This document shows positions 1 to 52,791 of a DNA stretch of 64,000 bases, piece by piece. The DNA comes from an uncultured Acidobacteriota bacterium (lineage in GTDB: Bacteria > Acidobacteriota > Thermoanaerobaculia > UBA5066 > Gp7-AA6): contig CAVXTP010000021.1 of the NCBI GenBank assembly GCA_963764715.1, forward strand, positions 367,040 to 431,039. Reading direction: 5' to 3'. The translations under genes and the position numbers were made by a program. Below the pieces are notes generated by a model that saw only the letters and a list, made by a program, of their open reading frames with translations, did no database searches and was not told the origin of the DNA. Each line of letters starts with the position of its first letter. Positions within the stretch are counted from its first letter, which is position 1.

Positions 1-1097
1 TTGAACGCGATCGTGTTGCCCTCGCCCGCGCCGATGCCGCCGATCGTCATGTTCGTGCCGTCGACGTTGATGCCGATGCGGTTGCTCCCGAGGTCGATCG
101 TGCCCGTCGGGTCGGTGCCGATGAAGTTGCCGTAGACGACGTGGCCCGAGCCGCCCAACCGCAATCCTTCGTAGAAGTTGGCCGCGGCGATGACGTTGCC
201 GTCGCCCGGCGCCGTCCCGCCGACCGTGTGGCCGGTGCCGACGAGCGCGAAACCATGCTCGTACACTTCCAGCCGCACGGTCCCCGTCACATCCGTGCCG
301 ATGAAATTGCCCTTGAAAGTGTGCCCGGTCCCGTTCACGCTGATTCCGTTGCTCCCTCCTGCGATGACGTTGTCCCGGGCGGTGTTTCCGGATCCGTTGA
401 AGTTCAGCGCGAACGACGTTCCCGGGCAGGCCGGGGTCAGCAGCGCGTTTCCGCTTGCCGCCAGGCCGAACAGATTCCCCTGCACGACGTGAGCCGTTCC
501 GGCTCCGGCGAGCGTGACGCCGGCCTGGCATGCGGCGATGAGGTTGCGCGCGCCGGGCGCGGCCCCGCCGATCGTCGCGCCCGATTCGCCGGTCACGGTC
601 ACCTGGGTGCCGAAGCCCCCGTCGAGCCGCTGCGTTCCGGTCACGTCGGTCCCGATGAAGCAGCCCTCGACCTTGTTGTTCGAGAACGCGCCGTTGTTGA
701 AGACCACGCTCCCGCCGTGGATCGAGAGGCCCCGGATGGTCGTGTCGCTCGCGGAGACGCCGAGGGATCCGACGAGCTCGATCGTGAGCACGCTGTTGAG
801 GCCCTGGCCCACGGGATGGGTGTTCGGGCTCGAGCCCGCCTGCGTGAATCCATCGATCGTGACCGGAGACGTGATCACCGGCAGGGCGGTCACCGGGGTG
901 ATCGTGTGAACTCCCGAGCCCGCGATGTTGAACGCGATCGTGTCGGGCCCGACGTTGGCGTTGGCGTCGAGGATCGCCTGGCGCAGCGTTCCCGCCCCGG
1001 CGTCGGCCGTCGAGGTCACCGTGTAGGTGTTGGCCAGAGCCGGAACGCCGACGAGCAGGGCCACGAGGGCCACGAGGGCCGATGTAAGACGTCGCAC
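1..1097 (-). CDS. Secreted beta-helix array paralogue 1 (partial; 3' end runs off the window)
   Basis: Not in the ORF track. Manual translation from GTG at 1097 (AGGAGG at 1104-1109) gives [60 protein letters not shown]...IDGFTQAG...EGCFIGTD, the same N-terminus as the other paralogues. Confidence 0.9.
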
Positions 1098-1117
1098 GCG
1101 ATGCCTCCTTTGCCGGG

Positions 1118-3535
1118 CTACGGAAGACGGAAGGCGAGGAACAGAAACGCCGCCATCTGGCCGCGCGTGACGGAGTTCGTCGGACAGAAGTTGCCGCCCC
1201 CGCAGCCGCCGGTGATGTTTTCGGCCGCGAGCTGCTCGATCCAGTCCGCGAACTGCGAGGGGCAGGGGACGTCGGGGAAGTCGCCGCTGCAGGGCGGCGG
1301 AGCGTAGCTCGCGCCGTGCTTGGCCTTCAGCAGGAAGACCGCCATCTGCTGGCGCAACACGGGATTGCCGGGGCAGTACTTGCCGCCGCCGCAGCCTCCC
1401 GTGATGCCTTCCGCGGCGAGCGCCTCGATCCAGTTCGCGAAAGTCGACGGGCAGGCCACGTCTCCGAAGGTGCCGGAGCAGGGCGGCGGTGTGTAGCAGA
1501 CGCCGTACTTTCCTTTGAGGAGGAAGACCGCCATCTGCTGCCGCAGCGTGCTGTCGTTGACCCCGTAGTTCCCGCCCCCGACGCCGGCGGTGATGTCGCT
1601 CCGGACGAGCTTGATGACGGCGCTGTGGAAGATGTTTGCGGGCGGCACATCGAGGAAGTTCGCGACCCATCCGTTGAAGAGGGTCCCGGAGGAGCCGCTC
1701 GGGTTCGTCACGACGATGTCGCTGACGCTCCCGGGCGGGAGGGCGGGCATGTTCGCGTGGATCGCGGTGGCGCTGTCGACGACGACGCTCGAGGCGGCGG
1801 CCCCCCCCACCGTGACGGTGGCCCCGGCCTCGAAGAGCATGCCGGCGAGCGCCACGTTGGTTCCGCCGGCGGCAGGGCCGAAGAAGGGCGTGCTGGCGAA
1901 GACCAGCTCCTGCGAGAACTCGGAGGTGTTGCCGGAGGGGTCGGTCGCCGTCGCCGTGACGCGCTCGCCCGGCGCGATGTTGTCCGGCAGGACCGTGTCG
2001 AACACGCCGTTGCCCGAAGCGTCGGTCGTCACGACGATCGAGCCCATGTAGTCCTGGCCTTCGAGCAGGTCCTGGGGCCGCACGTTGCAGATCCTGTAGA
2101 AATCCACGTCGTAGGTGGTCGAGGCCTTGCTGTTCAGCGTGCCCTGGACCCGCGTGCCGTTGCCCTGCGGGATCTGGAGCGTCGCCGACGTCACGACCGG
2201 AAAGTTCTGGCGGCCGTTGGGACCCGTGTCCGCGTCGCCCGCGTCGTTGGGAGTGACGCCCGCAACGCCTCCCACGACGAGGTCGATTCCGAGGCCGTCG
2301 ACAGTCGCCACCGGCCGATTGGCGTAGATCGAGTTGCCCCGGATCGTCGCCGTTCCCCCGGTGACTAAGATGCCTCCCGACGGGCTGGAGTTCTTTCCGT
2401 TGAACGCGATGAGGTTGCCTTCGCCGGGCCCGATTCCCCCGATGACCGCGCCGGTGGAGCTCGAAACCTGGATGCCGTTGCGCTGGGCGCCGAGGTCGAG
2501 CGTCCCGGTCGCGTCGGTTCCGATGAAATTTCCCCGGATGATCGGCGCGCCGGCGGCCACCCCGATGCCGTCGTAGACGCCCGCGATGGTGTTGCCGAGG
2601 ATCTGGATGTTGCCGCTGCCGACGAGGCTGATCCCGCTGAACCCGTCGTTGACGAAGATCCCGCGGACGATGGCGCGCTGCCCCGTGACGTCGGTCCCGA
2701 AGAAGTTGCCCTGAATCGTGAAGTCCGCGGTGCCGAGGAGCTCGACACCCGCGGAAACGTTGCCGAAGACGTTCCTCGCGGCGGCCGTGGCGCCGCCCAC
2801 GACGACTCCAGTTCCCGCGCTCAACAGCACGCCCGAGCTCGTATCCCCGACGGCGCGCAGCCAGTCCAGGCCCGACGGCTTCATCGCGATGAGGTTGCCC
2901 TGGATGACGTGTCCCGAGCCGCCGGCGATCTGAACCTGGCCGAAATTGAATCCGGAGATGAGATTCCGGTCCGCCGGCGTCGTCCCGCCGACGCGGGCTC
3001 CCGTCTGCTGGTTGATCAGCACGCCGGCGGAAATGTTTCCGTTGACGGGGATCGTCACGCCGTCGGTCTTCGTCCCGAGGAAGTTTCCCGCCACGACGTT
3101 GTTCGCCACGGCCGACGTGAGCTCGATCGCTGCGCCGGTGCAGTGGTACACCGCGAGGCCCCGGATCGTGACGTCGCTCGCCTTCGAGATCAGGCATCCG
3201 CCGAGCCCTGCGCCGTCGACCTCGATCTGGAGAACCGTGTCGAGGCCCTGGGCCGTCGAGTGGGTGTTGGGCGACGCTCCGGACTGCGTATAGCCGTCGA
3301 TCGTCACCGCGCCGGTGATGTCGGGCAGCGCCGACGCGAGAGTGATCGTGTGCGGACCGGTTCCGACGATCGCGAACGCGATCGTGTCGGGGCCCGGGTT
3401 CCCGTTGGCGTCGAGGATCGCCTGGCGCAGCGTCCCGGCGCCGGAGTCGGCCGTCGACATCACGGTGTACGTGTTGCCGGCAGCCGTCGCCGTGAGGGTC
3501 AGCAAAGCGAGGGCAAGACCGAGTCGCTGGTTCAT
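1118..3535 (-). CDS. Secreted beta-helix / IPT / Cys-rich SLH protein, paralogue 2
   Basis: ORF 1118..3565; likely start ATG 3535 (MNQRLGLAL, AGGAG upstream). Signal peptide, [17 protein letters not shown] cap, GNF(I/L/F)GT beta-helix repeats, GNTSEFS Ig-like segment, IPT, three SLH-like repeats. Confidence 0.9.
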   Translation of the reverse strand: MNQRLGLALALLTLTATAAGNTYTVMSTADSGAGTLRQAILDANGNPGPDTIAFAIVGTGPHTITLASALPDITGAVTIDGYTQSGASPNTHSTAQGLDTVLQIEVDGAGLGGCLISKASDVTIRGLAVYHCTGAAIELTSAVANNVVAGNFLGTKTDGVTIPVNGNISAGVLINQQTGARVGGTTPADRNLISGFNFGQVQIAGGSGHVIQGNLIAMKPSGLDWLRAVGDTSSGVLLSAGTGVVVGGATAAARNVFGNVSAGVELLGTADFTIQGNFFGTDVTGQRAIVRGIFVNDGFSGISLVGSGNIQILGNTIAGVYDGIGVAAGAPIIRGNFIGTDATGTLDLGAQRNGIQVSSSTGAVIGGIGPGEGNLIAFNGKNSSPSGGILVTGGTATIRGNSIYANRPVATVDGLGIDLVVGGVAGVTPNDAGDADTGPNGRQNFPVVTSATLQIPQGNGTRVQGTLNSKASTTYDVDFYRICNVRPQDLLEGQDYMGSIVVTTDASGNGVFDTVLPDNIAPGERVTATATDPSGNTSEFSQELVFASTPFFGPAAGGTNVALAGMLFEAGATVTVGGAAASSVVVDSATAIHANMPALPPGSVSDIVVTNPSGSSGTLFNGWVANFLDVPPANIFHSAVIKLVRSDITAGVGGGNYGVNDSTLRQQMAVFLLKGKYGVCYTPPPCSGTFGDVACPSTFANWIEALAAEGITGGCGGGKYCPGNPVLRQQMAVFLLKAKHGASYAPPPCSGDFPDVPCPSQFADWIEQLAAENITGGCGGGNFCPTNSVTRGQMAAFLFLAFRLP

Positions 3536-3557
3536 TGGGCGTTCTCCTGTCCCGAAT

Positions 3558-3584
3558 CTCGACAAATGGCGGCGGCCGGGGTCA
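3558..3584 (-). promoter_or_regulatory. Putative ECF-type promoter TGACC-N14-TTGTCGAG
   Basis: Recurs with identical spacing at 8570, 11192 and 13681, each just upstream of a paralogue RBS. Function is inferred. Confidence 0.65.
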
Positions 3585-3685
3585 AGCGAAAACGGGCCGT
3601 GAGGCCCGTTTTGAAACAGTGGCGGCCGCGGGGGGGAGGCGACCCGCCCCCCGGGGCGCGCCTCCCGGGCGGTCCGGAAGAGGGT

Positions 3686-6088
3686 CTACGGCAGCGAAAA
3701 AGCATTGACCAGGAACGCGGCCATCTGGCCTCGGGTGACGTTGTTCTGCGGACAGAAGGTCGTTCCGCCGCAACCGCCCGTGACGCCCTCCGCCTGCAGC
3801 TGTTCGATCCAGTCGGCGAAGGGACCCGGGCAAGGCACGTCCGTGAAGTGGCCGTCGCAGGGCGGCGGGATGAACTGGGAGCCGTGCTTTCCCTTCAGCA
3901 GAAAGACCGCCATCTGGTCGCGCCGCACGGGATTGTCGGGGCAGTAGTTGCCGCCGCCGCAGCCGCCGGTGATGCCTTCCGCGGCGAGCTGCTCGATCCA
4001 TGGCGCGAAGTTGTTCGAGCACGGGACATCCGGGAATACGCCGGAGCAGGGCGGCGGCACGTAGCACGCTCCGTGGGCCGCCTTCAGGAGGAAGACCGCC
4101 ATCTGCTGGCGCTTCGTGTTCTGGGCCGGGCCGTAGAAGCCCCCGCCGACGCCGGCGGTGATGCCGTTGCCGACGAGGCGCATGACGTAGAGGTAGAACT
4201 GGTGGCTGGAGGCGACGTCGAGGAAGTCGGTCAGCCAGCCGTTGGGCAGCGTGTCGACCGGGCCGCCCGGGTTCGACACGACGATCGAGTTCACGGAGCC
4301 GGGAGGAAGGCTGGGCGTCTTCAGCGAAAGCGTGTGCACATCGGTCACCTGCACGTTCGACGCCGCCGCGCCTCCGACGGTGGCGGTCGCTCCGTCCTCG
4401 AACGCGAGGCCGGTCAGGACGATCGTCGCGCCCGACGGTCCGTACGACGGCAGGCCGTAGAAGATGGCGCGGGGCGAGAGCTCGGAGGTGTTTCCGGCCG
4501 GGTCGATCGCGGTCGCTGAAACGGGGGACCCATCGGGGAGCGCGACCGGGAGGATGACGTTCACGACGGCGTGGCCGGAACCGTCCGTCGTGGCCGTGCT
4601 CGAGCCGATGTACGTCCGCGCCTCGGGCAGGTCCTGGGGACGACGCTCGCAGATCGGATCCGCATAGAAGTCGAGGTCGTAGATCGTCGAGGGCGCGCTG
4701 TCCAGCACGCCGGCGACGGTCGTGGTCGAAACGCCGTAGGTGACGGAAGAGAGGACCGGGAAGTTCTGTAACCCGTTGGGCCCGGCGTCGGCGTCGCCGG
4801 CGTCGTTCAGCGTGACTCCGTTGCCGGCGACAAGCAGGTCGATGGCGAGGCCCGAGTGGTAGTTGCCTCCGGGGTTGTCGAAGATCGCGTTTCCGCGGAT
4901 CGTTGCCTTGCCGGCGTTCTCGACGCCCACGCCGGCCAGTCCCGAGTTCGAGATGACGTTGCCTTCTCCCGGATTGACGCCGCCGATGATCGTCCCCGTC
5001 GCCAGGACGCGGATGCCGTAGGTCGGGTTGCGAAGGCGGATGAGGCCGGTCTCGTCCGTGCCGATGAAGTTGCCCTGGATCACCGAACCCGTCGCCGACT
5101 GGTACACGGAGATACCCGAGGCATCCGATCCCCCGACGAGGTTACCGGCGCCCGGGGTTGCGCCTCCCACGGTGTTGTCCGGGTCGTTGAGCGCGATGCA
5201 CTCGTTGTGACAACCGAACGCGAAGGTCCCGGTGACGTCGATGTCGACGTAGTTGCCCTGGATCAAATTGTCGGACGCGACGATCCCGGGAGTGCCGGAG
5301 CCGCCGACGTTGATCCCTCCGCTGATGACGTTGCGGGCCGCGGGCGTCGTCCCGCCGATGACGTTGTTCGATCCGACGAACAAGGAGAGACCCTTCGAGC
5401 CGAACTCGTTCAAGCTCTTCTTTCCCGTGATGTCGGTGCCGATCAGGTTGCCGGCGACGAGGCTGTCGTGAAACCCGGGCGCTCCGCCCCCGAGCTGTAC
5501 CAAACCCGCGAAGAGGTTGCGCGCGGCGGGTGTCGTTCCGCCGATCCGGGCGTTGTTCGCGTCGAGACTGAATCTCAGCGAGCCTTGAAACGGAGCGGGA
5601 ATCTGCGTTCCGGACGGGTCGGTGCCGAGGAAACAGCCCTCGATGACGAATCCCTGGTGCCCTCCGGTGACGTCGATCTCGTACTGCGGCGCGCGATTGA
5701 TGACGAAGCCCTTCAGCGTGACGTCGTCGGCGCTGACGACCATGCAAGTCGCCGCGCCGACGTTGGTGCAGTCGATCTCAATCTGCAGGACCGTGTTGAG
5801 CCCGAGGCTGGTCGGGTTGGTGTTGACCGAAGACCCGGCCTGCGTATAGCCGTCGACGGTCGAGGGCCCGGTGATCGCGGGCAGGGGGGAGGCCAGGGAG
5901 ATCGTGTGGGGGCCGGTTCCCACGACGCCGAAGGCAATTGTGTCGACGCCGGGGTTGCCGTTGGCATCCAGGATCGCCTGGCGCAGGGTCCCGGCGCCGG
6001 AATCGGCCGTCGACGTCACCGTGTAGGTGTTGCCGAGAGCGGCCACGGATGCGAAGGCACCGACCAGAGCCAGCAGAGTCCGCTTCAT
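3686..6088 (-). CDS. Secreted beta-helix / IPT / Cys-rich SLH protein, paralogue 3
   Basis: C-terminal part of ORF 3686..8203; true start ATG 6088 (MKRTLLALVG, GGAGG upstream). Same architecture. Confidence 0.9.
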   Translation of the reverse strand: MKRTLLALVGAFASVAALGNTYTVTSTADSGAGTLRQAILDANGNPGVDTIAFGVVGTGPHTISLASPLPAITGPSTVDGYTQAGSSVNTNPTSLGLNTVLQIEIDCTNVGAATCMVVSADDVTLKGFVINRAPQYEIDVTGGHQGFVIEGCFLGTDPSGTQIPAPFQGSLRFSLDANNARIGGTTPAARNLFAGLVQLGGGAPGFHDSLVAGNLIGTDITGKKSLNEFGSKGLSLFVGSNNVIGGTTPAARNVISGGINVGGSGTPGIVASDNLIQGNYVDIDVTGTFAFGCHNECIALNDPDNTVGGATPGAGNLVGGSDASGISVYQSATGSVIQGNFIGTDETGLIRLRNPTYGIRVLATGTIIGGVNPGEGNVISNSGLAGVGVENAGKATIRGNAIFDNPGGNYHSGLAIDLLVAGNGVTLNDAGDADAGPNGLQNFPVLSSVTYGVSTTTVAGVLDSAPSTIYDLDFYADPICERRPQDLPEARTYIGSSTATTDGSGHAVVNVILPVALPDGSPVSATAIDPAGNTSELSPRAIFYGLPSYGPSGATIVLTGLAFEDGATATVGGAAASNVQVTDVHTLSLKTPSLPPGSVNSIVVSNPGGPVDTLPNGWLTDFLDVASSHQFYLYVMRLVGNGITAGVGGGFYGPAQNTKRQQMAVFLLKAAHGACYVPPPCSGVFPDVPCSNNFAPWIEQLAAEGITGGCGGGNYCPDNPVRRDQMAVFLLKGKHGSQFIPPPCDGHFTDVPCPGPFADWIEQLQAEGVTGGCGGTTFCPQNNVTRGQMAAFLVNAFSLP

Positions 6089-6096
6089 GGTCCCTC

Positions 6097-8547
6097 CTAG
6101 GGAAGCTTGAACGTGTTGACGAGGAACGCCGCCATCTGTCCGCGAGTGACGTTGGTGAGAGGGCAGTAGTTGTTGCCGCCGCAGCCGCCGGTGACACCCT
6201 CCGCGGCGAGCTGCTCGATCCAGTTCGCAAAGGTCGAGGGGCAGGCGACGTCGGTGAAGTCGCCGCTGCACGCCGGCGGAACGAAGGACGAGCCGTGCTT
6301 GGCCTTGAGCAGAAATACGGCCATCTGGTCGCGGCGCACGGGGTTGCCGGGGCAGTAATTGCTGCCGCCGCAGCCGCCCGTGATGCCTTCGGCCGCGAGC
6401 GCCTCGATCCACGGCGCGAAGGTCGAGGGGCACGCGACGTCGGAGAAAACTCCGGCGCAGGGTGGCGGCACGTAGCAGACGCCGTACTTGGACTTGAGGA
6501 GGAAGACGGCCATCTGCTGGCGCAGCGTGCTCGAAGCGACGCCGTAGTTCCCGCCGCCCACGCCGGCGGTGATGCCGTTGGCGACGAGCTTGGTGACCTG
6601 GGTGAGGAACTGGTTTCCCGGGAGGACGTCGTTGAAGTACGCGATCCAGCCGTTCGGAAGGGTCCCCGAGAGGCCGCCCCCCGGGTTCTGCACGACGACG
6701 GAGTTGATCGAGCCGGCCGGCAATGCGGGGATGTTGGCGGTGATCGTGTTCGCGTCGTCCACGACGACCCCGGTGGCCGCCACGCCGCCGACCGTCACCG
6801 TGGCGCCGGCCACGAAGGCGAGCCCCTTGATCTGCGCGCCAAAGTGTCCGGTGGTCGACCCTGCCCCCGGCGCCATCGAAAGCACGAAGCGCGGGGTGAA
6901 TTCCGACGTACTGCCGTTGGGGCTCGTCGCCGTGGCGCTGATGGGCGAGCCGTTCGTGACCGCGAGCGGCAGGATCGCGTTGAAGGTGGCGTTGCCGGAT
7001 CCGTCGGTCGTCACCTGCGTCGAGCCGAGATAGGTCTGGCCCTCCGGAAGGTCCTGCGGCCGCCGCGAGCACGCCGGGTTGGCGTAGAAATCGAGGTCGA
7101 AGATCGTGGCCGCACCGCTGTTCAGGGTCCCGGCGACGGTCGTCGTCGAGCCGCCGTACGCCACCGACGAGATGACCGGAAAATTTTGGAGCCCGTTCGC
7201 GCCGGTGTCGGCGTCTCCGGTGTCGTTGAGCGTGACGCCCGCGAAGCCGTCGTGGAGATCGATCCCGAGGCCGTCGGTCGACTGGTACGCGTTCGTGTCG
7301 TAGATCGAGTTGCCCCGGACGGAAACCCCCTGCCCCCCCGCGACGTAGACGCCGGCGCCGGGGGCCGTCACGCCGACGGCGGGACCGTTGTTGGCGATGA
7401 CGTTGGCCTCGCCGGGCCCGGTGCCTCCGACCGTCACGGCGTCCGCGACGACGTAGATGCCGTTCGAGCCGTTGCCGAGCCGGGCGGTTCGGGTCGAATC
7501 CGTGCCGATGAAATTGCCCTGGATGACCGTCGAGTCTCCGTGGACCTCGATTCCGCCGTTGCCGAGCCCGCCGGCGATGACGTTGCCCGCCCCCGCGGCA
7601 GCGCCCCCGATCGTGTTGCCCTGGTTGTTGGCGACGACGCAGCCGCCGTAGCAGCCGAGCGCAAGCAGGCCCGTGGCATCGGTGCCGAGGAAGTTGCCCC
7701 GGACGAAATTGCCGGTCGCGAAGGAATCGTTCCAGCCGCCCCCGAGATTGATCGTGTTGACGATCACGTTGGGGGCGCCGGCGGACGTGCCGCCGACGGT
7801 GATTCCCGTCCCCATGAAGATGCCGACGGACTGGGTGGCGTTCGTCGCGAGCTTCGCGGTGCCGGAGGCGTTCGTGCCGATGAGGTTGCCCTGGATGAGG
7901 TGGCCGCTGTTGACCCCGAAATTCTCGCCGATGTGGACCTGGTGGTACCCGCTGTCGCCGCCCGAGATCAGGTTGCGCGCGGCGGGCGTCGTGCCCCCGA
8001 TGCGCGCGTTCTGGGCGGAGACCAGGTTGACGCCGTTCTGGTAGGGCGAGAGCGCCTGCGTGCCGTCGGCGCTCGAACCGAGGAAGCAGCCCTCGACGAC
8101 GAGGTTCTGGTGGGAGGGCGGCGGAGTCTCGATGTCCGGCCCGGCGCAGCGATTGATCGCGAGGCCGCGGATCGTGACGTTGTCGGCCTGGACCGACAGG
8201 CACGGCGTGGCCCCGGCATTCGTGCCGTTGATCTCGATCCGCAAGACGGTGTTCAGCCCCTGTCCCGTCGGGTTCGTATTGGCCGAGGAGCCCGCCTGCG
8301 TGAAGCCGTCGATCGTCACGGGCCCGGTGATCGCGGGCAGCGCCGAGATCGGCGAGATCGTCTGGACCCCGCTGCCGACGATCCCGAAGGCGATCGTATC
8401 GGCCCCCGGGTTGGCGTTGGCGTCGAGGATCGCCTGGCGCAGGGTCCCGGCTCCCGAATCGGCCGTGGACGTGACGGTGTAAGTGTTCCCGGCGGCGATC
8501 GCCGCGGCGGCGAACAGAGCCCAGGCGAGTCCGAGACGCTTATGCAT
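6097..8547 (-). CDS. Secreted beta-helix / IPT / Cys-rich SLH protein, paralogue 4
   Basis: ORF 6097..8577; start ATG 8547 (MHKRLGLAW). 8 nt gap to paralogue 3 suggests an operon. Confidence 0.9.
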   Translation of the reverse strand: MHKRLGLAWALFAAAAIAAGNTYTVTSTADSGAGTLRQAILDANANPGADTIAFGIVGSGVQTISPISALPAITGPVTIDGFTQAGSSANTNPTGQGLNTVLRIEINGTNAGATPCLSVQADNVTIRGLAINRCAGPDIETPPPSHQNLVVEGCFLGSSADGTQALSPYQNGVNLVSAQNARIGGTTPAARNLISGGDSGYHQVHIGENFGVNSGHLIQGNLIGTNASGTAKLATNATQSVGIFMGTGITVGGTSAGAPNVIVNTINLGGGWNDSFATGNFVRGNFLGTDATGLLALGCYGGCVVANNQGNTIGGAAAGAGNVIAGGLGNGGIEVHGDSTVIQGNFIGTDSTRTARLGNGSNGIYVVADAVTVGGTGPGEANVIANNGPAVGVTAPGAGVYVAGGQGVSVRGNSIYDTNAYQSTDGLGIDLHDGFAGVTLNDTGDADTGANGLQNFPVISSVAYGGSTTTVAGTLNSGAATIFDLDFYANPACSRRPQDLPEGQTYLGSTQVTTDGSGNATFNAILPLAVTNGSPISATATSPNGSTSEFTPRFVLSMAPGAGSTTGHFGAQIKGLAFVAGATVTVGGVAATGVVVDDANTITANIPALPAGSINSVVVQNPGGGLSGTLPNGWIAYFNDVLPGNQFLTQVTKLVANGITAGVGGGNYGVASSTLRQQMAVFLLKSKYGVCYVPPPCAGVFSDVACPSTFAPWIEALAAEGITGGCGGSNYCPGNPVRRDQMAVFLLKAKHGSSFVPPACSGDFTDVACPSTFANWIEQLAAEGVTGGCGGNNYCPLTNVTRGQMAAFLVNTFKLP

Positions 8548-8569
8548 TGAGCTTTCTCCTGTGGCGTAT

Positions 8570-8596
8570 CTCGACAAAGTGCGGCCTCCGGGGTCA
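8570..8596 (-). promoter_or_regulatory. Putative ECF-type promoter TGACC-N14-TTGTCGAG
   Basis: TTGACCCCGGAGGCCGCACTTTGTCGAGA on the minus strand, upstream of paralogue 4. Confidence 0.65.
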
Positions 8597-8710
8597 AGGA
8601 AAAAGAGGTTGGGGACCGCGGCTCCCGGCCGTGCGGCGGACCCGATCCGCCGTTCGGAAGTCCCGGGAAGGGGCCTCCGGCGCCTCCCGATGGCACGGGC
8701 CGGAGACTAC

Positions 8711-8730
8711 GGGCGGGCGCAAGCCCGCCC
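8711..8730 (-). terminator. GC hairpin downstream of paralogue 5
   Basis: gggcgggc-gcaa-gcccgccc perfect 8-bp stem about 25 nt after the stop; no U tract. Confidence 0.35.
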
Positions 8731-8754
8731 GAGGGAGTCGAGGAAAGGCTCCCT

Positions 8755-11169: not shown

Positions 11170-11191
11170 GTAGGACTCCTCCTGACCCTGA

Positions 11192-11218
11192 CTCGACAAA
11201 ACGCCGGGCCGGGGGCCA
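11192..11218 (-). promoter_or_regulatory. Putative ECF-type promoter TGGCC-N14-TTGTCGAG
   Basis: Same motif and spacing, upstream of paralogue 5. Confidence 0.6.
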
Positions 11219-11247
11219 GGAGGAAATCCGCGATCGCCGCGGGGTCG

Positions 11248-13659: not shown

Positions 13660-13680
13660 GGGGATCCTCCTGTCAAAGGA

Positions 13681-13707
13681 CTCGACAAAAAGCAGCGTCA
13701 AGGGACA
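13681..13707 (-). promoter_or_regulatory. Putative ECF-type promoter TGTCC-N14-TTGTCGAG
   Basis: Same motif and spacing, in the divergent gap between paralogue 6 and the ECF gene. Confidence 0.6.
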
Positions 13708-13808
13708 CGGAACGGCTCGGGTCAATGGGAATTCGGGCTCGGCGTCCTCGGCGGCGGCTCCCGCCGGCCGGGGGGAGCCGGGGCACCTCCGATACAATTC
13801 GGGCATTC

Positions 13809-38062: not shown

Positions 38063-38443
38063 TTATCGCAAGGGCGGCCGGAACGTCGCCCGGTTTTCCG
38101 GGCCTTCCCAGACGGTCACCTCGGCGACCCGGGACCAGCCCAGGGCGCCGGAGGCATCGAGCCTTTCGGCGAAGTAGCGGGCCAGGTTTTCGGCCGACGT
38201 GTTGCGGCCGCGGAAGGCGGCGTGTTCGTTGACGTAGCCGTAGTCGAACTCGGCGGCGATCGCCGCCAGGGCCTTCTTGGCCGGGACGAAATCGACCGCG
38301 AGATCGTACTGCTGGAGCTTGTCGGCCTCGAGCACGGCTTCGACCCGGTAGGAGTGTCCGTGGAGAGGCTCTGGGCCGCCGGCGTAGTCGATCAGGTTGT
38401 GCGCGGCCTCGAAGCGGGCGGTGACCGTGACGCGATAGCTCAT
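38063..38443 (-). CDS. 6-pyruvoyl-tetrahydropterin synthase / QueD family protein (COG0720), PTPS-III-type signature
   Basis: C-terminus of ORF 38063..42070: MSYRVTVTARFEAAHNL...PEPLHGHSYRVE...VDF...NTSAENLA...VTVWEGP. ATG overlaps the upstream stop (ATGA). Confidence 0.85.
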   Translation of the reverse strand: MSYRVTVTARFEAAHNLIDYAGGPEPLHGHSYRVEAVLEADKLQQYDLAVDFVPAKKALAAIAAEFDYGYVNEHAAFRGRNTSAENLARYFAERLDASGALGWSRVAEVTVWEGPENRATFRPPLR

Positions 38444-45584: not shown

Positions 45585-47963
45585 CTACGGGAGCGCGAAG
45601 GTCTTGGTCAGAAAGACGGCCATCTGCCCGCGCGTGTTGTTGTTGGCCGGGCAGTAGTTTCCGCCCCCGCAGCCCCCCGTCACGTTCTCGGCCGCGAGCT
45701 GCTCGATCCAGTCGGCGAAGAGCCCCGGGCACGTCACGTCGGGAAAGACGCCGGTACATGGCGGCGGCAGGTACGCCGAGCCGTGCTTGGCCTTCAGGAG
45801 AAAGACCGCCATCTGGTCGCGCCGGACCGGATTCTGAGGACAGTAGTTGCCCGCACCCTCGCGGACGGCGGAGCCGCAACCCCCGGTGATGCCCTCGAAA
45901 TAGAGGGCCTCGATCCAGGGCGCGAACGGCGTCGCGCAAAGCACGTCCGCGAAAATTCCGATACACGGCGGCGGGACGTAGCAGATGCCGTGCTTGCCCT
46001 TGAGAAGGAAGACCGCCATCTGTTGACGGAGGACGGGATTCGCGACGCCGTAGAGGCCGCCGCCGATGCCTCCGGTGATCGCGTTGGCGGTGAGAGCGAC
46101 AACGGAGTCGTGGAACAGGTTCGACGGCGGGACGTCGTCGAAGTCGGCGACCCAGCCCCGGGAGAGCGTTCCCCTCGTTCCGTCGGAATTGGTCACGGTG
46201 ACGTCGTGGGCGCCGGGGACGAGCGCGGGCGTCGTGGCGGAGACTTGCCAGAAGCTGTCGACGGAAACGCCGGAGGCGGCCTGGCCGCCGACGGACACCG
46301 TCGCGCCGGCTGCGAAGTCCGTGCCCGAGATCGCGACGGCCGTCCCGCCGCCCGAGGGCCCCGACCGCGGGGTGATCGAGAACGGAAGGCGCTGGGAAAA
46401 GCCGGAGGTCTGGTGGGTGGGGAAGCCGCCCGTGGGAACGGACGGATTGAAGGTCACGGTGGCGGTCGCCGTGACGCGCCGGCCCGTGACGTCGAGGATG
46501 GAATCGGCGTGGAACGCCAGGTGCCCGCTTGCGTCGGTGACGCCGCTCGTGGTCGCGAAGAAGTTCATGCCCTCGTCGAAGTCCGAGGGCCACTTCGCAG
46601 AGCACGCCGGACCGTAGAACAGCTCGATCGAGACGAAATCGTTCGGACTGCCCGAGTAGACGCCGTCGATCGCGCTTCCCGCGGCGCCCGAGACGACGGA
46701 GGTGATGATGGGAAAGTTGAACGGGCTCAGCGGCAAGTTCGCCCCGATCGCCTCGGCCTGCCCGAGCACGATTCCGAGGCCGTGGTTGTCATGGATCGAG
46801 TTCTCGGTGATGGTGACGCTGCTGTTGATGGAGATCTGGAGCCGCCAGATCCCCGACCGGTTGAAGGCGATCGCGTTGTAGGAGATGGCGAGCGCGTCGC
46901 CGACCTCGATGCGGATTCCGGTCCCGCCGTTGCCGATCGGGGACGTGCCGAGAACGTCGGCACCGATGACGTTGATGGCGACGATGTTCTGCACGGCGCC
47001 GATGTTGGCCGTCGAGTAGGAGAGGTCGACGCCGTTGCCGGCGTTGCCCGAGATGACGTTGGAGAAGATGCTGAAGTTTTCCGAGACGCCCTCGACGCGG
47101 ATCCCGTGGCCGCCGTTTCCGAGCATTGCCATGCCCGTGGCGTCGGTTCCGATGAGGTTGCCCTGGACGGAGTTCGCGTTGCCATCGGTGATGGCGACGC
47201 CGGTCCCGAAGTTGCCCGAGATGACGTTTCGCTCCTCGGGAGTCGGGCCGCCGACCTGGATGTTCGAGGAACCGGTCACTTGGATTCCGGCCCCGTTCGG
47301 AAGAGCCGCGGCGCCGGTCTTGTCGGTCCCGATCAGGTTTCCGCGGATCAGCTTGCCGTCGCACCCGGAGATCACGACGCCGGCCGACGAATTCCCCGCG
47401 ATGAGGTTCCGCGCCGCCGGGTAATTGTCGCCGATCTTGTCCTGCCCCGTCGTGCCGGTGATGGAGACACCCGTGACGTTGCCCGGGAACGTCTCGTTTC
47501 CGGCCGCATCAGTGCCGATGAAGTTGCCGATGACCCAGAGGCCGGGCGCGCCGGAGACCGCGATGGCCGTCTGGAAGCCGTGGAGGGCGAGGCCCTGGAC
47601 GATCGCTGCGCCGCCCGTGATCACGAGGCCGTCGGTCCCCTGGCCTAGCAGCTCGACCTGGAGCACGGCGTTGTCGCCGACCGGGTCGGTGTTCCACACG
47701 GAGCCGGGCTGGGAATAGCCGTCGATGAGAGTCGAGCCCGTGATGGTCAGGGGAGTGAACGTCACGATCGTGTGCGGGCCCGTGCCGGGGATCGCGAAAT
47801 CGATCAGGTCGCCTTCCACCGTCCCGTTGGCGTCGAGGATGGCCTGGCGGAAGGAGCCCGCGCCGCCGTCGTTGGTGTTGGTGACGGTGAAGGTGGCGGC
47901 GCCCAGGGGCTGAGCGGCGAGGCCGAGAAGCAGAAACGGGCCCAAACGCGGTTTGACTCGCAT
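45585..47963 (-). CDS. Secreted beta-helix / IPT / Cys-rich SLH protein, paralogue 16
   Basis: ORF 45585..48281; start ATG 47963 (MRVKPRLGPFLLL, GAGG upstream). Confidence 0.88.
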   Translation of the reverse strand: MRVKPRLGPFLLLGLAAQPLGAATFTVTNTNDGGAGSFRQAILDANGTVEGDLIDFAIPGTGPHTIVTFTPLTITGSTLIDGYSQPGSVWNTDPVGDNAVLQVELLGQGTDGLVITGGAAIVQGLALHGFQTAIAVSGAPGLWVIGNFIGTDAAGNETFPGNVTGVSITGTTGQDKIGDNYPAARNLIAGNSSAGVVISGCDGKLIRGNLIGTDKTGAAALPNGAGIQVTGSSNIQVGGPTPEERNVISGNFGTGVAITDGNANSVQGNLIGTDATGMAMLGNGGHGIRVEGVSENFSIFSNVISGNAGNGVDLSYSTANIGAVQNIVAINVIGADVLGTSPIGNGGTGIRIEVGDALAISYNAIAFNRSGIWRLQISINSSVTITENSIHDNHGLGIVLGQAEAIGANLPLSPFNFPIITSVVSGAAGSAIDGVYSGSPNDFVSIELFYGPACSAKWPSDFDEGMNFFATTSGVTDASGHLAFHADSILDVTGRRVTATATVTFNPSVPTGGFPTHQTSGFSQRLPFSITPRSGPSGGGTAVAISGTDFAAGATVSVGGQAASGVSVDSFWQVSATTPALVPGAHDVTVTNSDGTRGTLSRGWVADFDDVPPSNLFHDSVVALTANAITGGIGGGLYGVANPVLRQQMAVFLLKGKHGICYVPPPCIGIFADVLCATPFAPWIEALYFEGITGGCGSAVREGAGNYCPQNPVRRDQMAVFLLKAKHGSAYLPPPCTGVFPDVTCPGLFADWIEQLAAENVTGGCGGGNYCPANNNTRGQMAVFLTKTFALP

Positions 47964-48012: not shown

Positions 48013-50394
48013 CTACTGCAGGTTGAAGGTCTTGACGATGAACACGGCCATCTGCCCGCGGGTGTTGGGGTTGGCCGGGCAGTAGTTGCCGCCGCCGCAG
48101 CCGCCCGTAATGCCCTCGGCTGCGAGCCGCTCGATCCAGTCGGCGAATGCCGATGGGCAGGGAACGTCCGCGAATGTCCCCCCGCAGGCGGGCGGCACGT
48201 AACCGGGGCCGTGCTCGGCCTTGAGGAGGAAAACGGCCATCTGGTCGCGGCGCACGGGGCTTCCCGGACAGAAGTTGCCACCGCCGCAGCCGCCGGTGAT
48301 GCCTTCGGCGAGGAGCGCTTCGATCCAGTCGGCGAAGGCGGATGGACAGGGGACGTCGCCGAAAATGCCCGTGCACGGGGGCGGCACGTAGCACAGGCCG
48401 TGCTTGCCCTTGAGAAGGAAGACCGCCATCTGCTGGCGCAGCGTGGGGGAATCGACGCCGTAGAGGCCGCCTCCGACGCCGCCCGTGATGCCGTTCGCGA
48501 AGAGCGTCACGACGTCGGCGTGGAAGGGGTGGGCCGCCGGGACGTCCAGGAAATCCGAAACCCATCCCATCCTCAACGTCCCGCGGGTCCCGTCGAGATT
48601 GACCACCGTGATGTCGCTGGCCGAGCCGGCCGGCAGCGGGGGCGTGGCGCACGTGATCAGAGTGCGGTTCTGGACGGTGATGAAGTTCGGTGTCAATCCG
48701 CCGATCGTGATCGTCGCGCCCGGAAGGAAATCGGTGCCCGAGACGAAGACGGGCGTTCCCCCGGCCGCCGGTCCCGAGGAGGGCGAGACCGAAAAGGGCA
48801 ACCGCTGCGAGAAGGCCGACGTGTGGTAGCTCCCCAGGAGGCCCCCGTCCGCGATCGCGAACGGCGGGGTAAAGACTTCGGCGATCGTCGTGACGCGCTC
48901 GTCCGTCAGCGTCACCGGAAGCTGGTCGGTGAACGCTGCGTCGCCGTTGCCGTCGGTGACGAACGTCGCGCCGGTGCCGAGGAAGGTCTTCCCCTCGTCG
49001 AACCATTGCGGTCGCGATACACAGGCCGGGCTGGCAAAGTACCGCAGCGTGACGTTGCGGCCGGCCGGCCCGTGGTAGATCCCCTGGAAGGTGGTGACGC
49101 CTCCGGCCGACGCGACCGAGGTCAGAAGGGGAAAGTTGAGATCGCTTCCGGGTGCGTTGGCGGGAATGACCGGAGTGGCGCCGAAGGCGACGCCGAGGCC
49201 GCGGTTGGAGTCGATGGAGTTGCCGGTCCACACCACGGTCCGTTGCGGTGTTGGAAAGAGGTTCCAGATCCCGACCCGGTTGAAGGCGATGAGGTTGCCG
49301 TCGATGTGGAGGTAGTCGCCGGCGACCACGCGGACTCCGGCGCCTCCGTTTCCGATCGCCTGGCTCCCGCCCCCGTCCGTGCCGACGAAGTTGAGGGTGA
49401 CGGAGTTGGTCACGAAATTGCTGATGATGAGTCCGGTGTTGATCTCGATCCCGTTGACGGCGTTGCCCGAGACGACGTTCCGCTGGACGAGGTAGGTCTC
49501 GGGGTAGCCGTTGATCTCGATGCCGTGGTTGCCGTTGCCGAGCGCGGCCTGGCCGTAGGCATCGGTCCCGACGTAGTTGCCGTCGATGTGATTGAAGTTC
49601 CCATCCGTCGTTTCGATGCCGGTGCCGAGATTGCCGGAGACCACGTTCCGCTCGACGTTCGTGCCGATCTGGTTGCCGGACGAGTTCGTCAGCCGGATGC
49701 CCGTTCCGTTGCCCCGCGGGAAGGAGCCCGTGGGATCCGTGCCGATGAGGTTCGAGAGGATCGCCTTGCCGTTGGCCCCCGAGAGCTCGACCCCGATCAC
49801 GTTTCCCGAGATCAGGTTTCGGTCGGAGACGGCGCTTCCGCCGATCGTGTCGAGACCGGTCGTGCCCTGGACCGAAATGCCGACGGCGTTCCCGGCGGTC
49901 GGCCCGCCGGCGGCGTTGGTGCCGATGAAGTTCCCGCGGATCCAGTTGTTGGGATTGGTCGTCAGGACGATCGCCGCCTGGAATCCGTTCAGGGCGAGGC
50001 CCTGGACGACCGCGCCCGACGCGATCGTGAGCCCGTCCGTGCCGCTTCCCTGGAGCTCGATCTGGAGAACGGCGTTCGTCCCGGCGGGGAGGGTGTTCCA
50101 CGCCGAGCCGGGCTGGGAGTAGCCGTCGAGGGTGACGTCCTCGGTGATCGTGGGCAGGGCCGAGGGAACGGCGATGACGTGCACGCCGGGGCCCGGGATG
50201 TCGAAGACGATCGAATCCGGGCCGACGACCGCATTCGCGTCGAGAATCGCCTGCCGCAGGGACCCGGCCCCGGAGTCGTTGGCATTGGTGACCGTGAAGA
50301 CGGCGCCTCCGGCCAGGGCCGGAGCCGCGCCGGTCGCGACCATCCCGGCAAAGACGACGACTGCCCCCAGGGCCCTCCCGGCGAATCCCCGCAT
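48013..50394 (-). CDS. Secreted beta-helix / IPT / Cys-rich SLH protein, paralogue 17
   Basis: 793 aa ORF with the same architecture. Confidence 0.9.
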   Translation of the reverse strand: MRGFAGRALGAVVVFAGMVATGAAPALAGGAVFTVTNANDSGAGSLRQAILDANAVVGPDSIVFDIPGPGVHVIAVPSALPTITEDVTLDGYSQPGSAWNTLPAGTNAVLQIELQGSGTDGLTIASGAVVQGLALNGFQAAIVLTTNPNNWIRGNFIGTNAAGGPTAGNAVGISVQGTTGLDTIGGSAVSDRNLISGNVIGVELSGANGKAILSNLIGTDPTGSFPRGNGTGIRLTNSSGNQIGTNVERNVVSGNLGTGIETTDGNFNHIDGNYVGTDAYGQAALGNGNHGIEINGYPETYLVQRNVVSGNAVNGIEINTGLIISNFVTNSVTLNFVGTDGGGSQAIGNGGAGVRVVAGDYLHIDGNLIAFNRVGIWNLFPTPQRTVVWTGNSIDSNRGLGVAFGATPVIPANAPGSDLNFPLLTSVASAGGVTTFQGIYHGPAGRNVTLRYFASPACVSRPQWFDEGKTFLGTGATFVTDGNGDAAFTDQLPVTLTDERVTTIAEVFTPPFAIADGGLLGSYHTSAFSQRLPFSVSPSSGPAAGGTPVFVSGTDFLPGATITIGGLTPNFITVQNRTLITCATPPLPAGSASDITVVNLDGTRGTLRMGWVSDFLDVPAAHPFHADVVTLFANGITGGVGGGLYGVDSPTLRQQMAVFLLKGKHGLCYVPPPCTGIFGDVPCPSAFADWIEALLAEGITGGCGGGNFCPGSPVRRDQMAVFLLKAEHGPGYVPPACGGTFADVPCPSAFADWIERLAAEGITGGCGGGNYCPANPNTRGQMAVFIVKTFNLQ

Positions 50395-50440: not shown

Positions 50441-50478
50441 GCGGGAGGCGATACCCATCGAATTCGGGGCGGACGCTG

Positions 50479-52791
50479 CTATTGCAGTCCGAACGTCTTG
50501 ACGATGAACACGGCCATCTGCCCCCGCGTATTCGGGTTGCCGGGGCAGTAGTTGCCGCCGCCGCAGCCGCCCGTGATGTTCTCGGCCGCGAGCTGCTCGA
50601 TCCAGCTGGCGAAGGTCGACGGGCAGGGCACGTCCGGAAAGGTCCCGGCGCAGGCCGGAGGCAGGTAGCTCGAGCCGTGCTCGGCCTTGAGCAGGAAGAC
50701 GGCCATCTGGTCGCGCCGCACGGGACTCGTCGGGCAGTAGTTGCCGCCGCCGCATCCGCCGGTGATCCCTTCGTCGGCCAGGGCCTCGATCCAGTTGGCG
50801 AACGTCGACGGGCAGGTGACGTCGCCGAAGGCTCCGTTGCAGGGGGGCGGGGTGTAACAGAGGCCGAACTTCGCCTTGAGAAGGAAGACGGCCATCTGCT
50901 GGCGCAGCGTCGGCAGGTCCACGCCGTAGTTGCCGCCGCCGACTCCGACGGTGATGCCGCTCGAGACGAGAGTCGTGACGAACGAATGGAACTGTTGGAA
51001 ACCGGGGACGTCCAGAAAATCGGCGACCCAGGCCTTGGGGAGCGTGCCCGTCGTGGCGTCCGGAGTCGTCACGACCAGGTCGTTGACGGTGCCCGGGCCG
51101 AGAGCGGGCGAGGTGGACTGCAGGGTGTGATCGTTGACGAAGGTGACGGGAGTCGAGACGCCGCCGATGGTCATCGTCGTCGGGTTGGCGAAGTCGGTTC
51201 CGGAGACGGCGATCGCCGTTCCGCCGGAGGCCGGGCCCGAGGTCACGCCCGTCAGGGCAAATACGATGCGCTGGGAGAACTCGGAGGTATTGCCGGCCGG
51301 ATCGGTCGCCGTCGCGGAGATGCGGGCGCCCGCCTCCGAGGCGACGGGGAGCGTCACGTCGATCGCCGCATGACCCGATCCGCTGGTGGTGACCTGGGAA
51401 GACCCGAGGTAGGTCTCGCCCTCGAGGAACTCCCGGGGAGTGTTCGAGCAGGCGGCGTTGGCGAAGAAGTCCAGTTCGAACGTCGTCGAGGGCGCGCCGT
51501 TGAACTTGCCGGTGATGTGCGTCGTTCCGGGGCCCGGGACCGCGGACAGGATGATGGGAAAGTTCTGGAGCTGGTTCGGACCCGTGTCACCGTCGGTCGG
51601 GTCGTTCGGGACCGGGGAGCCGGTGCCGAACGCGATGCCGAGGCTGTAGTTGGAAAAGATCCGGTTGGCCCGGATCGAATTCCCCGTGCCGGCGGCCGCC
51701 TCGAGGAAAATGCCCGCGCCGACGGTCGCGACACCGGCGACTCCGTTGTAGGCGATGGTGTTGCCCTCGCCCGCGGCGGTGCCGCCGATCTGGTTGTTCT
51801 GCGTCAGGCATCCGAGGAAGAGGCCGTCCTGGACGTTTCCGAGGGGGTTGGTTCCCGAAGCATCGACCCCGATCCGATTGCCCTGGATCACGTTGTCCGC
51901 GAGGGCGGTCACGCAGTCGTAAGTCAGGCTGATGCCGTAATCGCCGTTTCCGGAGATCACGTTCCCCTCCCCGGCGGCGGACCCTCCGATGGCGACACCC
52001 GAGCCGGGGAACAGGGCGACGCCCACACCGCCGCCGAGGGATGCCGTTCCCCCCGCGTTGGTCCCGATGTGGTTGCCCTGCACGGCCGTGCCATTCACCG
52101 TGGCGCCGAAGTCGCCTTCGAGCCGGATGTTCGCGCCGAAGGCGGTGTTCTCTCCGTTGGCCGAGATCACGTTGCGATCGCCGGGGTTCGGCCCGCCGAT
52201 GTTGCTGTTCGGAGCGCGAAGGAAAACGCCCCACGTGCCGCAACCGGCGGCCAGCGTTCCCGACGGGTCCGTGCCGATGAAATTGCCCCGGATGGTGTGA
52301 CCGCCGAGCGTCGCGCCGCCCGTCGCGTCGATGAAGATTCCCACGTAGCTGAACCGGTTGATGACGAGTCCCCGGATCGTGGTGCTGTTCGACAGCACAT
52401 AGAACCCGATGGCGAACCCGCCGACCTGGCTCCCGTCGAGCTCGATTCCCAACACCGCGTTGTCGCCGACGGCCAGAGTGTTCTGGCTCGTACCGGGCTG
52501 CGTGTAGCCGTCGATGATCACCGGATCGGTGATGTTGGGCAGCGCCGACGCCGGCTTGATCGTGCAGACGACCGGGAGGCCGGCGCAGCCGGCGCCCGTG
52601 ACGTTGAAGGCGATCGTGTCGGGGACGCCGGGACTCGCGTTGGAGTCGGTGATCGCCTGGCGCAGCGACCCCGCGCCGCTGTCGGCGGTCGTCGTCACGG
52701 TGAGGGTTGCGGCGACGGCGGCGGACGTCAGGCCCGTGAGAAGAAGCCCGAGAGCGAGCGATAGAAATCGACCCGGGCGCGTGGAGCGCAT
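50479..52791 (-). CDS. Secreted beta-helix / IPT / Cys-rich SLH protein, paralogue 18
   Basis: ORF 50479..53121; likely start ATG 52791 (MRSTRPGRFLSLALGLLL). Confidence 0.88.
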   Translation of the reverse strand: MRSTRPGRFLSLALGLLLTGLTSAAVAATLTVTTTADSGAGSLRQAITDSNASPGVPDTIAFNVTGAGCAGLPVVCTIKPASALPNITDPVIIDGYTQPGTSQNTLAVGDNAVLGIELDGSQVGGFAIGFYVLSNSTTIRGLVINRFSYVGIFIDATGGATLGGHTIRGNFIGTDPSGTLAAGCGTWGVFLRAPNSNIGGPNPGDRNVISANGENTAFGANIRLEGDFGATVNGTAVQGNHIGTNAGGTASLGGGVGVALFPGSGVAIGGSAAGEGNVISGNGDYGISLTYDCVTALADNVIQGNRIGVDASGTNPLGNVQDGLFLGCLTQNNQIGGTAAGEGNTIAYNGVAGVATVGAGIFLEAAAGTGNSIRANRIFSNYSLGIAFGTGSPVPNDPTDGDTGPNQLQNFPIILSAVPGPGTTHITGKFNGAPSTTFELDFFANAACSNTPREFLEGETYLGSSQVTTSGSGHAAIDVTLPVASEAGARISATATDPAGNTSEFSQRIVFALTGVTSGPASGGTAIAVSGTDFANPTTMTIGGVSTPVTFVNDHTLQSTSPALGPGTVNDLVVTTPDATTGTLPKAWVADFLDVPGFQQFHSFVTTLVSSGITVGVGGGNYGVDLPTLRQQMAVFLLKAKFGLCYTPPPCNGAFGDVTCPSTFANWIEALADEGITGGCGGGNYCPTSPVRRDQMAVFLLKAEHGSSYLPPACAGTFPDVPCPSTFASWIEQLAAENITGGCGGGNYCPGNPNTRGQMAVFIVKTFGLQ

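Follow-up and report, generated by a model that had tools for sequence, protein, structure and literature searches.

The 64,000-nucleotide window considered here (C21:367040-431039, where C21 is contig CAVXTP010000021.1; coordinates without the prefix are those of the window) belongs to the 4.36-Mb, 26-contig assembly GCA_963764715.1 of an uncultured Acidobacteriota bacterium of the class Thermoanaerobaculia. Most of positions 1-52791 is filled by 18 paralogous genes for predicted secreted proteins, in which a beta-helix head is joined to a C-terminal SLH tail, and by two genes for GloVer-repeat proteins, every one of them on the minus strand. The initial annotation had counted these same 20 genes, as confirmed by open reading frame (ORF) calling guided by third-position G+C (GC3), and had interpreted them as a candidate variable surface-protein repertoire. 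The picture of a diversified beta-helix/SLH family with an embedded regulator stands, but “variable” in the sense of switching does not: judged from sequence comparison, the family looks old and stable, with each copy individually conserved, and not like a switching coat.

Because the window is 69% G+C, open frames are plentiful on both strands, and genes were called from GC3 together with the context of leaders and ribosome sites. The 20 family and GloVer genes occupy 44,708 of the 52,791 bases (about 85% by coordinate sum), and the array, as had been supposed, runs off the left edge of the window, continuing for another 52 kb to C21:314961. Genome-wide, a tblastn search located 45 loci with the N-terminal cap (N-cap) of the family, 35 of them co-oriented within C21:314961-419830 and 10 elsewhere. 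The full array extends over 104,870 bp, with family coding sequence making up 77.5%, and lies between bipA (left) and rlmN (right). Mis-assembly as the source of the array was rejected, as the copies share no more than 72% protein identity and comparable arrays are found at the bipA locus of five other assemblies. Three non-family genes also lie within positions 1-52791, encoding an extracytoplasmic function (ECF) sigma factor and a Ser/Thr kinase on the plus strand and a radical-SAM protein on the minus strand. The genes of the array within the window, other than the sigma/kinase pair, are as follows (TIGR03803, the GloVer-repeat model, has a cut-off of 44 bits).

3-1097, minus strand: g01, partial, the N-terminal part of a gene that extends in full over C21:365776-368136.
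1118-3535, minus strand: g02, 805 residues; beta-helix, TIG and three SLH repeats (SLH 53.4, TIG 28.4, Beta_helix 27.5 and NosD 24.9 bits).
3686-6088, minus strand: g03, 800 residues, with an 8-bp gap to g04 upstream.
6097-8547, minus strand: g04, 816 residues.
8755-11169, minus strand: g05, 804 residues, the copy used for folding.
11248-13659, minus strand: g06, 803 residues, divergent from the sigma gene.
17180-19465, minus strand: g07, 761 residues, last of the run g10-g09-g08-g07, whose gaps are 9, 14 and 16 bp.
19482-21713, minus strand: g08, 743 residues.
21728-23956, minus strand: g09, 742 residues.
23966-26362, minus strand: g10, 798 residues.
26517-28778, minus strand: g11, 753 residues.
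28779-28991, minus strand: SLH relic in the gap between g12 and g11, the end of a last repeat, which on direct reading gives ...NRGQMATFVVKTFNLQ*.
28992-31238, minus strand: g12, 748 residues.
31256-33529, minus strand: g13, 757 residues.
33560-36003, minus strand: g14, read across three frames (frame changes near 34640 and 34088).
36156-37916, minus strand: GV1, 586 residues, seven GloVer repeats with an SLH tail (TIGR03803, 269.6 bits).
38440-41034, minus strand: non-family radical-SAM fusion (TIGR03960 and TIGR03936), 30 bp downstream of g15.
41065-43425, minus strand: g15, 786 residues.
43545-45491, minus strand: GV2, 648 residues, seven GloVer repeats with TIG and SLH (TIGR03803, 307.8 bits).
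45585-47963, minus strand: g16, 792 residues.
48013-50394, minus strand: g17, 793 residues.
50479-52791, minus strand: g18, 770 residues, the first gene of the array, adjoining rlmN.

The leader of each family gene in the window, read by eye, is basic, then hydrophobic, and ends in A-x-A, with a GGAGG-like ribosome site ahead of it. Of the 18 copies, 17 have an unbroken reading frame, and each of these has a start, leader and ribosome site of its own. Gaps of only 8-30 bp link the copies in g04-g03, g02-g01, g10-g09-g08-g07 and g14-g13-g12, which points to operon-like runs of two to four copies. Only g14 is frameshifted, the remaining 34 copies of the array reading through without a break, and it is either a real pseudogene or the product of local assembly errors. 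The interval at 28779-28991 is the remnant of a lost family copy. A hairpin-capable segment of about 45 nt (GGTCCCGGGTCGCCGAG...GGGAAGGCCCGGA) lies upstream of both g14 and GV1 (36097-36155 and 38120-38180); as a dispersed element it was rejected, the genome having two full copies only. Beyond the array, the right flank (52972-64000) appears by eye to be housekeeping-like, with rlmN followed by genes for an alpha/beta hydrolase, a 2Fe-2S ferredoxin-like protein, an MBL-fold hydrolase, an OsmC-like protein, a membrane GGDEF protein and an ATP-grasp ligase.

Comparison of copy number and synteny, proposed with the original description, places the array at a fixed position. A full-length family profile matches 23 of the 24 genomes of the genus, and in the five relatives whose loci were fetched the array is flanked by bipA in every case and by rlmN in two, with 11-35 N-cap hits in the fetched stretches. 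The radical-SAM fusion gene is likewise retained in the arrays of three relatives (G017, G006 and G018).

A typical member of about 800 residues comprises the leader, the N-cap, a beta-helix, an Ig-like domain, a TIG domain and three SLH repeats. The N-cap is recognized by the motif TVT..D.G.GSLRQAI followed by IDG.TQ.G, and the beta-helix that follows is about 300 residues long (200-334 among the copies). Conservation of the N-cap, scaffold and C-terminal motifs, reported from the first inspection, is evident in a 16-member alignment (A1), where the invariant columns include T24, V25, D30, G32, G34, R37, Q38, A39 and I40, then D80, G81, Q84 and G86, G152 and G156, G183, R190 and N191, N444 and P446, and T536 and S537.

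Membership in the right-handed parallel beta-helix class is supported by the Pfam models Beta_helix (PF13229) and NosD (PF05048), both above gathering score in g02 and g15, with NosD alone in g18; of the six members scanned, g05, g07 and g11 had neither listed. An AlphaFold model of g05, for which the alignment input was 16 window paralogues, has a mean pLDDT of 84.2 and a pTM of 0.76. Structure comparison of this model places its helix closest to the alginate epimerase modules AlgE4 (Z 26.0, root-mean-square deviation (rmsd) 2.1 over 301 residues) and AlgE6 (Z about 26, rmsd 2.1-2.2), followed by NosD (Z 24.4), alginate lyases (Z 23-24), inulin fructotransferases (Z 20-23), RbmB (Z 22), phage tailspikes and the adhesin PfbA (Z 20.5). 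By identity, the closest solved chain is 8wm1, at 29% over 274 aligned residues (Z 23.1). Its entry title is “DHS dehydratase”; no literature on its function was found, nor did it come up when the PDB was searched by sequence. At the level of sequence, the N-cap aligns motif for motif with the N terminus of the Vi-antigen depolymerase VexL (E 0.0015). For the head, a scan against NCBIfam gave no model at E <= 0.01, and the “NEAT/LRR” rows of that scan were rejected as an identity for the head, being matches of the SLH tail far under that model's cut-off. The head is nevertheless widespread, with 6108 proteins at E <= 0.001 among 8000 candidates. Many relatives of the g05 head bear other tails (Big_9/cadherin-like, type IX secretion system (T9SS) tail, DUF11), and its language-model neighbours come from six phyla, with tails that include Calx-beta, dockerin and OmpA.

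The tail, first described as SLH-like, can now be assigned more firmly. PF00395 matches the tails of all eight proteins scanned at 32.8-56.9 bits, against a gathering score of 20.8, and a profile built from the tails only matches SbsB (E 9.3e-12) and Sap (E 3.9e-10 to 2e-8) across all three repeats. The tail of the g05 model superposes on the three-pronged SLH modules of Sap and SpaA with Z 19-20 and rmsd 2.1-2.6 (for Sap 3pyw, Z 20.3 and rmsd 2.6 with 170 residues aligned). One Arg in each repeat (R51, R114 and R177) is invariant in 18 of 18 tails and aligns with the Arg of ITRLD, LTRVE and ITRGD in SbsB. Together, the profile hits, the fold and the motif Arg of each repeat identify the tail as a true SLH module. 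It also carries nine invariant extra cysteines (C679 to C783 of g05), so that Cys accounts for 4.9% of the tail versus 0.5-0.7% elsewhere in the protein. A CsaB-like pyruvyl transferase is encoded at C7:20052-21041, its best match of 211.6 bits falling just below the cut-off of 213.1.

The same tail is used well beyond the beta-helix family. It is found at 132 loci in the genome, 88 of them outside the family, and the ten non-family loci scanned include heads of quite different kinds, among them a GSDH propeller, an M12 metalloprotease, FG-GAP, a BNR/sortilin propeller and a P-domain. About 3% of the coding capacity of the genome is given to SLH-tailed exported proteins, and the beta-helix family makes up one third of those loci. 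About 30 SLH-tail loci, grouped on contigs C4 and C16, encode small proteins of about 250 residues that have only one SLH repeat. Across the phylum, the tail was matched in 10 of 201 genomes drawn evenly from Acidobacteriota, this one included.

Where such a tail would hold its protein depends on the envelope. BamA is encoded in the genome (478 bits), so an outer membrane is present, and this raises the possibility that the proteins stay in the periplasm as structural or spacing elements associated with peptidoglycan. The leaders, which by eye resemble plain Sec signals without a lipobox, agree with such a role, as does a scan of six members against Pfam and NCBIfam, which detected neither an outer-membrane barrel nor a T9SS tail nor any part of an autotransporter; the known SLH ligands, those of Sap, SpaA and SbsB, are moreover polymers linked to the wall. 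Against this, two secretin-type matches in the genome, both under the GspD cut-off, make an export route possible, the occurrence of the same tail on proteases and propellers resembling exo-enzymes points outward, and 45 different heads are hard to reconcile with a purely structural role. A periplasmic scaffold is considered quite improbable.

What the heads do is a separate question. The fold neighbours lend some weight to the view that all copies are enzymes, envelope-tethered polysaccharide lyases, hydrolases or epimerases of varied substrates with which the cell would feed on glycans from soil or microbes. Glycan-active enzymes and phage depolymerases account for most of the best-ranked helix neighbours, with AlgE4 and AlgE6 at Z 26, the N-cap aligns with that of a depolymerase, and other SLH-tailed proteins of the genome (the M12 protease and GSDH) are enzymes; the top neighbours also include NosD, 8wm1 and the adhesin PfbA. 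The helix itself argues in the other direction. The columns conserved in at least 80% of the 42 full-length copies in the genome are nearly all Gly, Asn or aliphatic, together with two Arg and a single Phe, Thr, Pro and Ala, and the composition is 20% Gly, 9% Asn, 0.6% Lys and about 5% aromatics, with few charged residues. Polysaccharide lyases of family 1 (PL1) are characterized by a vWiDH motif and conserved acidic calcium ligands; here, the VexL stretch DVWVDHMDL aligns to VTIRGLVIN, and no acidic helix column is among those conserved at the 80% level. AlgE-type C-5 epimerases use the catalytic motif YG(F/I)DPH(D/E), and the string DPH occurs in none of the 42 copies. Neither these signatures nor any acidic, His or Lys residue is shared across the copies, and charged and aromatic content is low; an all-enzyme family is a less likely reading, in which catalytic sites may be specific to subclades.

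How the copies vary is central to deciding whether the array is a variation system. Column entropy over the 42 full-length copies is 0.6-1.5 bits in the N-cap, 1.6-2.55 in the helix, where indels are many, and 0.6-1.4 in the SLH tail. The median proportion of nonsynonymous differences between paralogues (pN) follows the same order, at 0.262 for the N-cap, 0.448 for the helix, 0.361 for Ig/TIG and 0.227 for SLH, while the synonymous proportion (pS) is alike in every region, about 0.46-0.51. A constant frame around a variable helix, as initially described, is therefore real, and uniform divergence is excluded.

This variation is old. Paralogue identity is 40-72%, with a median of 50%, and the synonymous distance (dS) is 0.5-1.0, that is, near saturation, even for the 25 closest paralogue pairs. 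In a tree built from the N-cap and helix of 119 full-length sequences (the 42 of this genome and those from the arrays of five relatives), the sister of a member consists of relatives only for 26 of the 42, is mixed for 12, and comes from its own genome only for 4. Strict one-to-one orthology across distant relatives, which the initial annotation had set against its own reading, is partly approached by those 26, but within one genus only and not strictly. The helix region of g05, for example, has counterparts 79-91% identical in other assemblies and is at most 50% identical to any paralogue in its own genome, on a scale where identity to relatives is 86-92% for the radical-SAM protein, 71-81% for the kinase and 91-99% for BipA. 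Between orthologues, the ratio of nonsynonymous to synonymous distance (dN/dS) in the helix is 0.18-0.45, with a median of about 0.31, and below 1 in 20 of 20 pairs; in the SLH tail it is 0.08-0.23 for 16 pairs, the values of 0.39-0.66 from four pairs with the error-prone G013 assembly not being trusted. By the tree, most of the duplications are older than the species of the genus.

A programmed variable coat, with one copy expressed at a time or copies shuffled by recombination, is what the many co-oriented genes, constant frame and variable middle first bring to mind. Variation of the vls or pilS type depends on long near-identical DNA between copies and on silent cassettes that lack starts. 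Neither feature is seen here: over 990 copy pairs the longest stretch of identical DNA is about 80 bp (median 20, 99th percentile 36), and the window copies, with the exception of g14, have unbroken frames and their own starts. Phase variation by short repeats or invertible promoters would call for short-repeat tracts in the 5' ends or for a recombinase gene with inverted repeats; the sole tandem repeats are the 189-bp SLH units, and a repeat scan found no short-repeat tracts. The non-family ORFs read in the array encode two sigma/kinase pairs, the radical-SAM protein, a phosphoesterase-like and a cytochrome-c-peroxidase-like protein, and no recombinase or reverse transcriptase was found among them, the Pfam and NCBIfam scans having covered the window ORFs. 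Some exchange between copies is nonetheless indicated. In a tree of the SLH tails, sisters from the own genome only are found for 14 of 42 members versus 4 of 42 for the head, so that, within the genome, the tails resemble one another more closely than the heads do, and one adjacent pair has an SLH dS of 0.27 versus a helix dS of 0.95; the 3' ends have thus undergone some concerted evolution by gene conversion. Given that the copies are old, that their heads are kept between species, that long shared DNA, short-repeat tracts and, among the ORFs read, recombinases were not found, and that genes are joined in operon-like runs, a programmed coat is very improbable, and the claim of a repertoire that switches or diversifies rapidly is not upheld. 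Among nine sequencing runs checked, none was recorded as RNA and none contained more than 0.10 of the sampled words.

The array does have an embedded regulator, as suggested, and its link with the family proves closer than first seen; the sigma/kinase pair and the promoter-like motif near it are as follows.

13725-14402, plus strand: ECF sigma factor (TIGR02999, 196.1 bits against a cut-off of 126.15), its true start probably at about 13809.
14399-17170, plus strand: Hanks-type Ser/Thr kinase (Pkinase 143.5 and TPR_12 120.9 bits) with one membrane span, by reading, and C-terminal TPR repeats.
3558-3584 (C21:370623-370597), minus strand: promoter-like motif TGACCC-N13-TTGTCGAG before g02, the TTGTCGAG box beginning 30 nt before the start.
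8570-8596 (C21:375635-375609), minus strand: promoter-like motif before g04, from the motif scan.
11192-11218 (C21:378257-378231), minus strand: promoter-like motif before g05, from the motif scan.
13681-13707 (C21:380746-380720), minus strand: promoter-like motif TGTCCC-N13-TTGTCGAG before g06, from the motif scan.

The window sigma factor reads ...EQTLSTTALVHEAY..., with STTA where canonical ECF sigma factors have DxxD in region 2.2. In PMC13147305, the consensus of ECF43 sigma factors at the DxxD site is given as QTTA, with the Thr phosphorylated, and PMC8999054 describes activation of ECF43 sigma factors by a neighbouring kinase; the protein is accordingly called ECF43-like here, on the grounds of TIGR02999 and the S/T-T-A motif. 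The genome contains five TIGR02999 sigma genes (C13:119266, C16:22019, C16:27434, C21:349144 and C21:380881). Each of the five is followed by a Hanks kinase gene and adjoined divergently by an SLH-tail gene, which for three of them is a member of the beta-helix family, and sigma/kinase homologues lie inside the arrays of all five relatives fetched. One of these genes belongs to a second sigma/kinase pair within the array to the left of the window (C21:349102-355148), where by eye a metallophosphoesterase-like and a cytochrome-c-peroxidase-like gene are also found.

The bipartite motif TG[TAG]CC[CG]-N13-TTGTCGAG occurs four times in the genome versus 0.19 expected from composition, and all four copies lie 29-30 nt before the starts of g06, g05, g04 and g02, paralogues near the window sigma gene. 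The same layout, with unrelated spacers, precedes the g06 orthologues in G013 and G018 and three other array genes of relatives; TTGTCG[AC]G is present in 6 of 105 upstream regions of relatives, one at a different distance. The window sigma factor would be expected to read the motif. A TAGACT-like box, seen by eye 30-45 nt before the start in many of the longer gaps, occurs in 16 of the 105 upstream regions, and a sigma-70 promoter scan of positions 1-20000 gave 0 sites. Candidate motifs near the other four sigma genes were loose resemblances by eye only, and no claim is made for them.

Taken together, these observations make it probable, at a moderate level of confidence, that the array encodes a panel of envelope-tethered beta-helix heads with differing glycan-related specificities, partly under ECF43-type control. 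The system would then be an ancient tandem multigene family at a fixed bipA-rlmN locus in one genus of uncultured Thermoanaerobaculia. Each protein would be exported by Sec and fastened through its C-terminal triple SLH module to a pyruvylated envelope glycan, with two Ig-like spacers between the SLH module and a right-handed beta-helix, the exposed surface of which is different in each copy. The family would have arisen by old duplications with some loss, followed by purifying selection on each copy, so as to form a stable panel of distinct specificities, its heads most likely glycan-binding or glycan-processing. Expression would proceed from many promoters and short operons, and part of the panel would probably be induced by the ECF43-like sigma factor once phosphorylated by its TPR receptor kinase.

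Several observations weigh against such a panel. For its stability, these are that 16 of the 42 members have no relatives-only sister and that array size varies between species, from 11 to 35 N-cap hits in the fetched stretches; turnover is therefore real, and the SLH relic between g12 and g11 and the broken g14 are further marks of it. Some paralogue pairs also reach a helix dN/dS of 0.9, a value made unreliable by dS near saturation under 90% GC3. For its location, the outer membrane implied by BamA means that the proteins may be periplasmic rather than surface-exposed, and in this genome, with BamA and two sub-cut-off secretin matches, no export route past the outer membrane was established. 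For its specificities, none of the helix columns conserved in at least 80% of the 42 copies is acidic, His or Lys, and aromatic and charged residues are few, so that the helix shows no obvious catalytic site common to all copies and no groove of the usual sugar-binding kind. For its control, the motif-bearing g06, g05, g04 and g02 are close kin, so that the motif may have been copied along with them, and the window sigma gene itself is without it.

A more far-reaching version, which is unlikely, is that one lineage of diderm Acidobacteriota has taken up anchoring by SLH and pyruvylated glycan in the Gram-positive style, using it to keep more than 130 exported proteins on its envelope. At the core would be a recognition panel of 35-45 beta-helix members at a fixed locus, induced block by block through ECF43-type sigma factors that are activated by phosphorylation and whose TPR receptor kinases read the outside. 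If true, it would represent an inducible library of envelope receptors or adhesins without a described counterpart. Thermoanaerobaculia are common in soil but uncultured, and next to nothing about their biology comes from experiment; the ligands of the heads, once known, would tell much about how these cells meet their surroundings. The sigma/kinase pair, for its part, offers a concrete candidate regulon for the ECF43 type, a regulator class with few known targets. For the scanning of genomes more generally, a constant frame with a variable core in many copies can mean an old and stable family and not a variation system.

The literature searched contains no functional description of the family, in agreement with the initial statement that no characterized system of this kind was known, and its parts are best compared with known systems one by one. 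Like the SLH proteins of Bacillota (Sap and the others of Bacillus anthracis, Paenibacillus alvei SpaA, Geobacillus SbsB), the family members have three SLH repeats with the motif Arg in each, the same fold (Z 19-20) and one anchor common to many heads; the candidate CsaB-like pyruvyl transferase of the genome, just below the cut-off, may be a further parallel. Unlike them, they carry the SLH module at the C terminus with nine extra invariant cysteines, their host is an Acidobacteriota bacterium with BamA, and the head is a beta-helix present in about 45 copies, mostly in tandem. SLH anchoring is thereby predicted in a BamA-bearing member of a phylum in which it is rare. In the head, the helix fold (Z 22-26) is that of the AlgE4 A-module, PL1-like VexL, PL6 and other alginate lyases, inulin fructotransferases and NosD, and the N-cap motif is shared with VexL, but the catalytic signatures of the enzymes are not conserved, and an Ig/TIG stalk and SLH anchor have been added. 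The so-called choice-of-anchor passengers of NCBIfam, such as GloVer (TIGR03803), offer another parallel, in that the same head occurs elsewhere with other tails and the GloVer genes of the array carry a TIG and SLH tail; unlike those passengers, the beta-helix head matched no NCBIfam model at E <= 0.01.

The closest regulatory counterparts are EcfP/PknT of Vibrio parahaemolyticus and EcfK/PknS of Xanthomonas citri, in which, according to PMC8999054 and PMC13147305, a sigma gene is likewise followed by one for a membrane Ser/Thr kinase, with S/T-T-A in place of DxxD. The predicted targets here are SLH-tailed envelope proteins and not a polymyxin regulon or type VI secretion system, and the kinase has a large TPR domain. 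What is new in this genome is that all five sigma/kinase modules stand beside SLH genes, and that the bipartite motif is found only upstream of four paralogues near the window sigma gene.

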